64,000 nucleotides of DNA from Escherichia coli. GTDB lineage: Bacteria; Pseudomonadota; Gammaproteobacteria; Enterobacterales; Enterobacteriaceae. Position numbers: made by a program. This document shows, in pieces, positions 55,901 through 58,900 of the stretch. The number at the start of each line of letters is the position of its first letter. Position 1 is the stretch's first letter. The stretch lies in assembly GCF_017348835.2 (NCBI RefSeq), contig NZ_CP071375.1; one strand, given 5' to 3'.

Positions 55901-58900
55901 TTATTGTTAGTCATGACTAACAAAATAGATGTTAACAAAAACATAGTCAATACGATTTAGCATTAGCTAACTATGGAAACAAAAAATTTAACTATCGGCG
56001 AACGCATTAGGTATCGTCGGAAAAACCTCAAACACACCCAAAGGTCTCTTGCTAAAGCCCTGAAAATCTCCCATGTGTCTGTATCACAATGGGAACGGGA
56101 TGATAGTGAACCTACAGGGAAGAACCTTTTTGCCCTCAGCAAAGTATTGCAATGCTCACCAACATGGATTCTATTTGGCGATGAAGACAAGCAACCAACA
56201 CCACCTGTTGAGAAGCCAGTTGCCTTATCCCCCAAAGAACTAGAGCTCCTTGAGCTGTTTAATGCACTGCCAGAATCAGAACAGGATACCCAGCTCGCCG
56301 AAATGCGAGCTCGAGTAAAAAACTTCAATAAACTCTTTGAAGAATTACTAAAAGCCCGTCAGCGGACAAATAAAAGATAACATCATCAATGAGTTATCTT
56401 TTACCACATCAATCATGTTAGCCATAACATACAAAATCACTTGACCTATATGTTAGCCATGGCTAATCTTATTTGCATCAACACACCGCACGGTGTTCTC
56501 AGCAAACAGTTCCGCTACCCCGGCGTTAAGGGGAAATGAGGTCAACATGGATACTATCGATCTTGGCAACAGCGAATCTCTGGTATGTGGCGTGTTCCCC
56601 AACCAGGACGGTACGTTCACCGCGATGACGTATACCAAAAGCAAAACGTTTAAAACCGAATCTGGAGCGCGTCGCTGGCTGGAAAGAAATTCAGGTGGGT
56701 GATATGGATTTCGACACAATCATGGAAAAGGCTTACGAAGAATACTTCGAAGGTCTTGCCGAAGGCGAAGAAGCTCTCAGCTTCAGCGAATTTAAACAGG
56801 CACTTTCCAGTTCGGCAAAATCTAACGGCTGATAAGCGAAACAGCACCGCGAGGAATCAGTATGCAGAAACGAGAACCCGTCATCATCGCGCCAGACTAT
56901 ACCGATGATGAACTTTATGAGTGGATGCGCCAGAAAATTAATGCAGCGCAGGATCTGAAATGGGCCAATGAAGCCAGGGCTAAGCAGGCTGAAAATCTGT
57001 CCGCTCTGGAGCAGGATATCACTAATCTGGAAAAAGCAGCGACATTAAGCATTGCCAGAATGATTACATACCCGCGTTAATAGCTAACCAACGAAGCTAA
57101 GGTTGGTAATTAAGGAGTTCTCCACGGATGAGGTGGAGTGCGTGCGCCGGACACGGGTGAGCATCCGGCACTGACAGTTTACTGAAAGGATATTTCCCTG
57201 AAAAGTCAGACCATAACGCGAAAGCGCACGGCGAGGTAGCTGGTTCATAGATAGCCTGTCGTTAAATTTTCGTCGACCGTGCGCTTCCGGTTGTGGCAAT
57301 CCGCGAAATGGCGCGGCGGTAAGTATGGCGGGGTTATTCCTTCCCCCGTTGAGGACACCGGGTTGTCAGGTTGACCATACGCTTAAGTGACAACCCCGCT
57401 GCAACGCCCTCTGTTATCAATTTTCTGGTGACGTTTGGCGGTATCAGTTTTACTCCGTGACTGCTCTGCCGCCCTTTTTAAAGTGAATTTTGTGATGTGG
57501 TGAATGCGGCTGAGCGCACGCGGAACAGTTAAAACCAAAAACAGTGTTATGGGTGGATTCTCTGTATCCGGCGTTAATTGTTAACTGGTTAACGTCACCT
57601 GGAGGCACCAGGCACTGCATCACAAAATTCATTGTTGAGGACGCGATAATGAAAACGTTATTACCAAACGTTAATACGTCTGAAGGTTGTTTTGAAATTG
57701 GTGTCACTATCAGTAACCCAGTATTTACTGAAGATGCCATTAACAAGAGAAAACAAGAACGGGAGCTATTAAATAAAATATGCATTGTTTCAATGCTGGC
57801 TCGTTTACGTCTGATGCCAAAAGGATGTGCACAATGAATTCAGCATTTGTGCTTGTTCTGACAGTTTTTCTTGTTTCCGGAGAGCCAGTTGATATTGCAG
57901 TCAGTGTTCACAGGACAATGCAGTAGTGTATGACTGCAGCAACCGAACAGAAAATTCCCGGTAACTGTTACCCGGTCGATAAAGTTATTCACCAGGATAA
58001 TATCGAAATCCCGGCAGGTCTTTAAAACAGTTCCGTAATAAATATCCGGTTTCATTCTTATATGCCAGCAATGGCAGGGATTTGTTCATCCTTAAATCTG
58101 TCATGAGGTTAAAACAAATGAGTAAAGTCTTTATTTGCGCCGCTATTCCTGACGAACTGGCAACAAGGGAAGAAGGCGCTGTGGCTGTAGCCACAGCCAT
58201 TGAAGCTGGCGACGAACGCCGTGCTCGAGCAAAATTTCACTGGCAATTCCTGGAACATTATCCGGCTGCTCAGGACTGCGCTTATAAATTTATTGTCTGC
58301 GAGGATAAACCTGGCATACCCCGCCCTGCCCTCGATTCATGGGATGCTGAATATATGCAGGAAAACCGCTGGGATGAGGATTCTGCTTCTTTTGTCCCGG
58401 TTGAGACTGAATCCGATCCGATGAACGTCACTTTTGACAAGCTGGCCCCTGAAGTACAGAACGCTGTCATGGTTAAGTTCGACACATGTGAAAACATCAC
58501 CGTTGATATGGTGATTAGCGCACAGGAATTGTTGCAGGAAGACATGGCAACATTCGACGGACATATCGTTGAAGCGTTGATGAAAATGCCAGAAGTTAAC
58601 GCCATGTATCCGGAGCTTAAGCTGCATGCCATCGGGTGGGTTAAGCATAAATGTAAGCCTGGTGCCAAATGGCCCGAAATTCAGGCAGAGATGCGCATCT
58701 GGAAAAAACGTCGCGAAGGTGAACGCAAGGAAACCGGAAAATACACGTCTGTTGTTGATCTCGCCCGCGCCAGAGTCAATCAACAGCACACTGAAAATTC
58801 AACAGGAAAAATCAGCCTGGTCATTGCTGCCATTCATCGCGAATACAAGCAGACATGGAAAACACTGGATGACGAACTGGCCTACGCTCTCTGGCCTGGT

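Follow-up and report, generated by a model that had tools for sequence, protein, structure and literature searches.

A stretch of 64,000 nucleotides (nt) of Escherichia coli DNA (contig NZ_CP071375.1, assembly GCF_017348835.2), referred to below as the window, was analyzed around a dicF/dicB module, in which a small RNA (sRNA) gene is followed by a gene for an inhibitor of cell division. The module is very probably a genuine dicBF operon that serves as early-left (PL-type) operon in a lambdoid prophage with P22-immC-like immunity; as a whole, this is the best explanation of the locus. It is located near the right end of the prophage in the order dicC/dicA, ydfABC, dicF, dicB, a ydfD pseudogene, an exonuclease gene and int (Table 1). 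A 116-nt segment directly 5' of DicF, designated element U, appears to be an undescribed conserved structured RNA that is present in strain K-12 as well.

Identity of DicF and DicB

The original prediction had placed a 53-nt DicF RNA with a GC hairpin and a T-run at 57422-57474 and a 62-codon DicB-like open reading frame (ORF) after it. Both assignments held. The Rfam scan that had been suggested as a check matched DicF (RF00039) at 57423-57474 on the plus strand over the full model (1-52/52) at 76.7 bits (gathering score 48; E=3.6e-15). This was the single DicF match in the whole window, and it was reproduced by a focused scan. The 53-nt form of K-12 starts at 57422, one base before the Rfam match, and the GC hairpin at the DicF end is followed by TTTTT at 57475-57479. 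The location agrees with DicF too: the RNA is encoded in the dicB operon between ydfC and dicB and ends in an intrinsic terminator. The ORF extends from an ATG at 57649 to a stop codon at 57835-57837, and its 62 codons match Pfam DicB (PF05358) from end to end (residues 1-62 on profile 1-62/62, 136.8 bits, cut-off 27). For this DNA, the annotations of K-12 BW25113 and strain PE164 give DicB (WP_000854559.1). The alignment with BW25113, a further suggested check, exhibited 9 differences in 760 nt (98.8% identity). Because all of them precede 57344, and 57344-57840 is 100% identical, dicF with its 5' and 3' seed regions, the dicF-dicB spacer and dicB have the same nucleotide sequence as in K-12.

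In K-12, DicA represses the promoter dicBp, and the derepressed transcript has been published to span ydfABC-dicF-dicB-ydfD. The 53-nt DicF is Hfq-dependent and represses ftsZ and other mRNAs, and read-through transcripts encode DicB, which together with MinC blocks assembly of the Z ring. By analogy with the identical K-12 sequence, Hfq-dependent repression of ftsZ and the same processed RNAs would be expected for the DicF of the window. Likewise, its DicB would be predicted to inhibit the Z ring in a MinC/ZipA-dependent manner.

Inverted repeats and RNA processing

GC-rich nested inverted repeats had been noted upstream of dicF. The repeat quoted as an example exists, with 13-nt arms that are 92% complementary (hairpin I2 in Table 1), and the repeats as such are real; "GC-rich" is only mildly true, at a GC content of 0.52-0.56 versus 0.45-0.49 in the flanks. 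The longest inverted repeat, I1, is located downstream of dicF and consists of a 19-nt pair at 57484-57502 and 57613-57631; several other pairs were found as well. Folding of the 342-nt spacer gave z=-2.3, and 4 of 100 shuffles were as good. The repeats therefore matter because of mapped processing sites and conservation and not because of global fold energy.

A single transcript is made from dicBp in K-12. Its cleavage by ribonuclease III (RNase III) "between positions 813 and 814" defines where a 190-nt DicF begins, and the 53-nt form is a product of RNase E (PMC10448788). RNase III also cuts the read-through RNA, giving a 72-nt form (PMC9438474). Counting 190 nt back from 57474 leads to 57285/57286, in the 3' arm of the stem at 57219-57289. 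Counting +813/814 from the putative transcription start at ~56475 leads to within a few nucleotides of the same place. The convergence of these two independent published figures supports the base of the I2 stem as the RNase III site. Counting 72 nt forward from 57422 leads to ~57493, in the 5' arm of the stem at 57484-57631. By this arithmetic from published lengths, we infer that the two large inverted repeats are RNase III substrates. The nested repeats of the original prediction thus fit, for the most part, known processing signals.

Structure and conservation of element U

Searches with the spacer revealed that ~57290-57413 is conserved without DicF in the cdtI phage, in Stx2c phages and in the leader of the P1 ban operon. 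The conserved RNA consists of four helices and a pseudoknot. The 19-nt loop of its third hairpin retrieved at least 120 viral contigs, which gave 73 distinct versions. A covariance model, R1, found 96 copies in the fetched loci and exactly one in the 64-kb window; in the HK022 genome there were zero matches at E<=1. Copies elsewhere include those at ~4209-4323 of the fetched K-12 locus, at ~2486-2600 of the P1 locus and at 1501-1615 of the cdtI phage.

In the alignment fitted to the model, 95.9% of the cells were paired, compared with 35-56% when the 3' partner was slid, and 11 pairs were changed on both sides, compared with 2-5 after sliding; none of 500 shuffles reached 11. A structure-blind MAFFT alignment gave similar pairing (95.1% versus 34-56% slid) with 8 two-sided pairs, a number that one slide also reached, as did 3 of 500 shuffles. 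Covariation support for U is moderate, since the family has little depth and the P1-like and cdtI-like clades account for many of the changes. Fold energy was not used as support, because single-sequence folding of the 190-nt RNA recovers hairpin 3 only (see below).

Even at E<=10, no Rfam 15 family matched U; a scan of 56800-57900 returned only DicF, a sub-threshold STnc100 match and two chance matches. Sequence strings of U occurred in no paper of the searchable literature, and searches for dicBF together with antitermination likewise returned nothing. In a scan for the loop motif with one genome per species, 24 matches were obtained, 14 of which were true by the model and 10 chance, compared with ~9 expected; the ten chance matches fall in unrelated phyla. 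The true copies belong to Escherichia, Citrobacter, Trabulsiella and Izhakiella, in addition to contigs of metagenome-assembled genomes that probably carry enterobacterial phage DNA.

A coding function of U was excluded because a 1-nt indel between K-12 and the window falls inside it, the lengths of hairpin 2 vary by non-multiples of 3, and the frequent G-U pairs fit an RNA of the plus strand only. A query made of hairpin 1 and the linker (GGCGCGGCGGNANNNATGG) returned mostly chance matches in GC-rich coding DNA. The few true copies among them have the near-invariant hairpin 3 loop, so no deeper divergence was gained. As a separate observation, the motif GGCGGUA is present both in the U linker (57316-57322) and in the 5' arm of the DicF terminator (57437-57443), and in the minimum free energy (MFE) fold computed for the 190-nt RNA the linker is paired with the terminator 3' arm (57468-57473), a possible alternative pairing.

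Context of element U across phages

A terminator-like hairpin with a T-run follows U by ~30-120 nt in 117 of the 119 copies. The sequence between U and the terminator, the "seed", varies and comprises DicF, several DicF variants, a cdtI type and a P1 type. In P1, U directly follows Pban and the C1 operators and precedes the terminator, ~2.6 kb ahead of ban. The order in the cdtI phage is cI, terminator, strong PL-like promoter, a leader of ~280 nt, U, terminator and first ORF; the leader before U holds no N-sized ORF. A second long stem (ACAAAACAGAGAAGA ... TCTTCTCTGTTTTGT) was noted at 1676-1765 of the cdtI phage, after U and the terminator and before the first ORF, a position parallel to that of the RNase III stem downstream of DicF. 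No N-like protein was encoded upstream of U in any of 15 context classes; a repressor was found there, in many cases together with YdfA and other small proteins. The two N-bearing Shiga toxin (Stx) phages that were examined have kept DicF-like and STnc100-like parts upstream of kil and lack an intact U.

In the P1 record (NC_005856), part of the ban-operon leader, 2553-2654 of the fetched locus, bears the annotation "dicF-like region". It is homologous to 57301-57398 of the window, and its hairpin 2, hairpin 3 and pseudoknot show compensatory changes. It differs in being followed by a terminator hairpin of its own, without the DicF seed. Because the P1 locus gave no Rfam match to DicF at E<=0.01, this region resembles U and not DicF.

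Similarity to the put sites of HK022 was also considered. Like put, U is a non-coding RNA in the early operon of N-less lambdoid phages upstream of terminators, and the copies in P1 and the cdtI phage are promoter-proximal. However, put is ~70 nt long with two stem-loops (PMC9378689), compared with 116 nt, four helices and a pseudoknot for U. Each genome has one copy of U with none on the PR side, and HK022 has no sequence or structure match. Homology to put was ruled out by this architecture, by the null R1 search of HK022 and by the single copy in the window. A read-through activity of the put type would be suggested for U by context, namely the terminator after 117 of the 119 copies.

An STnc100-like RNA between dicF and dicB

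The dicF-dicB spacer folded with z=-4.15, and none of 200 shuffles was as good. Rfam STnc100 (RF02076) aligned to it at full length (model positions 1-206) with 34.4 bits (E=1.5e-5), which does not reach the gathering score of 47. Homologous spacers of P1, D6 and Stx phages scored 30.8-39.6 bits against STnc100; they precede kil in the Stx phages and tciA in P1 and D6. RNAalifold of 6 copies, including the true STnc100, gave a four-helix consensus of 31 pairs, 11 of which were changed on both sides. The spacer probably works like, and descends from, the STnc100 family, although it is not a member by the Rfam criterion. It shares with STnc100/PasD the closing helix, three inner hairpins and a position just upstream of a phage accessory gene. 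It is unlike them in its sub-threshold score, in the shifted register of one hairpin, in its place inside an operon, with an sRNA before it and dicB after it, and in a closing stem that is extended into the putative RNase III substrate. A 2026 preprint links STnc100 to PasD sRNAs and leaves dicF unmentioned.

The window also contains a bona fide STnc100 at 45681-45853 on the minus strand (Rfam, 100.8 bits). It is located between DUF3927/terB and a nanS-p-type sialate esterase gene (43693-45543); three tRNA genes (46627-46873) and Q (47084-47779) are upstream of it. A resemblance to lambda Kil and Rac KilR, division inhibitors encoded in early operons, concerns position: in N-type Stx phages the DicF-like and STnc100-like block directly precedes kil, in the place that dicB occupies here. 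Kil and DicB are nevertheless unrelated proteins, and the window encodes DicB.

Organization of the operon

The coordinates of the features are collected in Table 1. The spacer of the putative dicBp holds a perfect palindrome, TTAGCCATGGCTAA (56453-56466), which is operator-like. The promoter is described as putative because a simple promoter scan did not detect it; counted from its start, the published RNase III cut (+813/814, PMC10448788) would fall at ~57286, in keeping with this placement. The ydfD ORF ends after 30 codons, and Pfam DUF1482 covers just positions 1-27 of its 57-position profile. The gene is labelled as having an internal stop, or as a pseudogene, in PE164 and FORC 064, and it is annotated as intact in K-12. 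The exonuclease gene is intact in the window, and the copy in the Qin prophage of K-12 is truncated by IS2 and annotated as incomplete.

Table 1. Positions of the dicBF operon, its RNA elements and the prophage ends in the window
Feature	Position	Strand	Evidence or remarks
attL	10948-11009		Partner of attR
dicC, Cro-like regulator, divergent from dicA	55659-55889	-	Pfam P22_Cro, 44.2 bits; annotated in PE164 and K-12
dicA, CI-like repressor of the dicB operon	55973-56380	+	Pfam HTH_3 and Phage_CI_repr; annotated
dicBp (putative)	56441-56469	+	-35 TTGACC, 17-nt spacer, -10 TAATCT, +1 at ~56475; read from the sequence
ydfA (DUF1391)	56547-56702	+	Pfam DUF1391, 96.9 bits
ydfB	56704-56832	+	Annotated in PE164 and K-12 on near-identical DNA
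ydfC	56862-57080	+	Annotated; no Pfam family
Long hairpin I2, putative RNase III site for the 5' end of 190-nt DicF (~57285/57286)	57219-57289	+	Arms 57219-57231/57277-57289
Element U, conserved RNA 5' of DicF	57290-57405	+	116 nt, four helices and a pseudoknot; model R1, 178.7 bits
U closing helix	57290-57297/57398-57405		8 bp
U hairpin 1	57301-57305/57312-57316		Nearly invariant
U pseudoknot	57323-57328 with 57375-57380		GUAUGG with CCAUAC; in P1 GCAUGG with CCAUGC
U hairpin 2	57329-57333/57344-57348		Seven stem sequence types, all pairing; pyrimidine-rich loop
U hairpin 3	57360-57368/57388-57396		Near-invariant 19-nt loop
dicF sRNA with terminator U-run	57422-57479	+	Rfam RF00039, 76.7 bits; identical to K-12
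STnc100-like RNA closed by a ~19-22-bp stem, putative RNase III site for the 3' end of 72-nt DicF (~57493)	57484-57631	+	
dicB, 62-residue cell division inhibitor	57649-57837	+	Pfam DicB, 136.8 bits, full length; DNA identical to K-12
ydfD pseudogene (DUF1482 lysis protein)	57834-58025	+	In-frame TAG at 57924-57926
823-residue protein with C-terminal 3'-5' exoribonuclease domain	58118-60589	+	Pfam Rv2179c-like, 224 bits
Tyrosine integrase	60851-61876	+	PHROG integrase
attR	61929-61990	.	62-nt repeat inside tRNA-Ser serU (61932-62018, minus strand)

The prophage and its relatives

The prophage is lambdoid, ~51 kb in length and inserted at the tRNA-Ser gene serU with both attachment (att) repeats present. 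The direct repeat D1 has 62 nt at 97% identity and a spacing of 50,981 bp, and its attR copy is the 3' part of the tRNA-Ser gene, adjoining mtfA (the tRNA was found by Rfam; tRNA-Ser and mtfA are annotated in PE164). The sRNA rseX is encoded in the chromosomal flank at 1125-1214 on the plus strand (Rfam, 97.7 bits), which places the window in the hchA-hprRS-msrPQ-zinT-yodB-serU region. The right 24 kb of the window is essentially identical to strain PE164. FORC 064 is 100% identical over the 760-nt query, yet its prophage is degraded and lies in another context.

The modules that had been read in the prophage (O-like replication, Q, lysis and full morphogenesis) were confirmed. Full-length PHROG matches were obtained for the integrase, an O-like initiator, a Ren-like protein, Q, the large terminase, portal and major capsid proteins and, in the tail, for the major tail protein, the tape measure protein and J. 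Annotation of the near-identical PE164 prophage includes holin, lysozyme, Rz, the small terminase subunit, RusA, hok/sok and three tRNAs. Both att sites, integrase, immunity, replication, Q, lysis, packaging, head and tail functions of a complete lambdoid phage are thus present at full length, and the head-tail region is ~93% identical to that of the induced phages PhiR5_1 and PhiR12.

The description of the prophage as replication-competent-looking stood as far as these modules are concerned and could not be carried beyond them. The late operon contains an inserted IS3-family element (42331-43544) that separates nanS-p from the holin gene; the element carries an ALIL frameshifting pseudoknot (42612-42728, 120 bits). 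The terB gene has an internal stop in the annotation of the PE164 prophage, and no P-type helicase loader was recognizable in the prophage by PHROG search. Together with the stop in ydfD and a split nleB, these features would not allow viability to be claimed from the sequence. Related prophages of strains IAL7252, IAL7254 and IAL7255 cover 95% of the query and may be free of the IS3-family insertion. Type III secretion system (T3SS) effector cargo was noted at the left end of the prophage (11723-15946), with an NleF-like gene at 11723-12292. The NleB/SseK-family gene is split into an ORF at 15431-15946 (profile 1-154) and one at 13900-14493 (profile 151-317); the halves are ~940 nt apart, and the gap holds a 322-residue ORF, presumably an insertion. 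A sok antitoxin RNA (Rfam, 114 bits) is encoded inside the prophage at 50169-50343 on the minus strand, with a hokD-type toxin gene.

That this module has been recorded only from a defective prophage no longer holds. Work by the Vanderpool group in 2016 had located dicBF in various prophage settings, among them the 45-80-kb elements CP-933M/O/P, with zero matches to dicBF in the ~2,000 phage genomes searched at the time (PMC5069750). [quoted passage not shown] The 760-bp block was found in 4,729 of 5,426 complete E. coli genomes (87%), at a median of two and up to ten places per genome. Among sequenced phages, it was present in PhiR42_1, vB_EcoS-640R1, the PPompW phages, mEp460, Evi, Tritos and HannyBb. 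A record assigned to an unexpected host, PP818812.1 "Actinobacillus phage vB_Apl-pPE4", carries the enterobacterial lambdoid block at 81-85% identity.

Occurrence of dicF and dicB in a full-size lambdoid prophage is therefore already known and very common, and the window adds another case of it. DicF and DicB are textbook examples of division inhibitors encoded by prophages, and the finding as originally stated adds nothing to knowledge. Compared with Qin of K-12, the gene order from dicC/dicA through ydfA, ydfB, ydfC, dicF, dicB and ydfD to the exonuclease gene is the same, and it also corresponds to the annotated order in PE164. The present prophage differs from Qin in its length of ~51 kb, in having int, the two att sites, an intact gene for the 823-residue exonuclease and full late and morphogenesis regions, in its insertion at serU instead of the Qin site, and in the nonsense codon of ydfD, which is absent in K-12. 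EHEC CP-933M/O/P and the sequenced phages hold the same module in full-size lambdoid elements, often carriers of T3SS effectors, and no substantive difference from them was found.

Possible functions of element U

Upon derepression by loss of DicA control, a single transcript would be made, RNase III would cut the upstream stem to give the 190-nt DicF, and RNase E would produce the 53-nt form. U would then be the folded body of long DicF-type RNAs, a family of sRNAs of ~170-190 nt, located between the upstream cut and DicF. Because it begins 5 nt from the 5' end made by RNase III, U would stabilize the 190-nt species, and it would gate release of the seed by RNase E. For the phage, the module would act as a Kil-like transient block of division in early lytic development. 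The same layout of U and hairpin terminator with different seeds in the cdtI phage, the Stx2c phages and P1 would be in keeping with such a role.

Several observations weigh against this assignment. The MFE fold of the 190-nt RNA recovers hairpin 3 only (z=-1.7), and the near-invariant loops and linker suggest a specific partner and not mere stability. A few copies of U (loci L078, L128 and L072) precede an ORF and not an sRNA-like hairpin. The RNase III sites are placed by published lengths and not by mapping in this sequence, and the nonsense codon of ydfD, directly downstream of dicB, indicates that some decay of the operon has occurred. An alternative explanation is that of an inert remnant within a decaying prophage, with repeats that are chance features of a GC-rich spacer. 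The stops in ydfD and terB, the IS3-family element in the late operon and the split nleB are in line with it, as is a whole-spacer fold energy only marginally better than that of shuffled sequences. We nevertheless regard it as highly improbable: dicF, dicB and their spacer are nucleotide-identical to the experimentally active K-12 copy, for which both DicF and DicB-dependent filamentation have already been shown upon derepression. Moreover, viable phages and 87% of complete E. coli genomes have retained the block, and the repeats find their explanation in covariation and mapped RNase III sites.

A more serious competitor, although in our judgment a doubtful one, is that U exerts control in cis over the terminator that follows it in N-less lambdoid phages, either by modification of RNA polymerase as in put or as a riboswitch or protein-controlled attenuator. 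It would thereby set the share of transcription stopping at DicF versus reaching dicB, the exonuclease gene and int. The near-constant hairpin and T-run after U, whatever intervenes, favor such control, as do the positions in P1, just past the C1-controlled Pban and before a terminator, and in the cdtI phage, between a PL-like promoter with a leader devoid of an N-sized ORF and a terminator. Upstream N-like proteins are missing from all 15 context classes, the two N-bearing Stx phages lack an intact U, and U persists in the few loci without an immediate sRNA-like hairpin. The GGCGGUA motif shared by the linker and the 5' arms of lambdoid terminators, and the pairing of the linker with the terminator 3' arm in the MFE fold, point in the same direction. 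Other observations speak against it. The architecture is unlike that of put, the model finds nothing in HK022, and each prophage has one copy with none on the PR side. In K-12, a large share of transcription ends at DicF, and there is no report of antitermination. A downstream terminator is equally expected if U is merely part of an sRNA, and the anti-correlation with N rests on a handful of loci. The broader proposal, that U stands for a hitherto undescribed class of regulatory RNA, which acts in cis and governs terminator read-through in N-less lambdoid and P1-like phages, is put forward very tentatively, as a shade less likely still.

It is also conceivable, but unlikely, that U is an independent RNA domain acting in trans, for example as a protein-binding or tRNA-like decoy, which RNase III would free or display and whose link to DicF would be the shared transcription unit only. 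Its topology is cloverleaf-like, with a closing helix, three hairpins and a tertiary pairing between loop and linker; the unpaired loops and the linker are extremely conserved and the stems variable. The hairpin 2 loop is always pyrimidine-rich (..UCCU..) and resembles an anti-Shine-Dalgarno sequence, and in P1 and D6 the element is near tRNA genes. No match was obtained with ARAGORN, tRNA models or any Rfam family, though, and Northern blots of K-12 report no free species of ~116 nt (PMC10448788). The contexts of U fit a stabilizing role and control of the terminator about equally. Stabilization of the 190-nt RNA is preferred by a small margin, because that species is a stable, observed RNA.

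Implications

The 570 nt between ydfC and dicB form a chain of RNA modules: an RNase III stem, a pseudoknotted domain, DicF, and a further RNase III stem around an STnc100-like RNA. U, which is the pseudoknotted domain, is present in K-12 and is more conserved than the sRNA seeds that accompany it. If U governs read-through, it would set the ratio of terminated DicF to dicB, exonuclease and int expression, and in phages of the cdtI type and in P1 ban it would gate the whole early operon. Should it control either termination or sRNA maturation, it would help to explain the purpose of the 190-nt DicF, the passage of transcription through the DicF terminator to dicB, and expression of the early operon in lambdoid phages without N.

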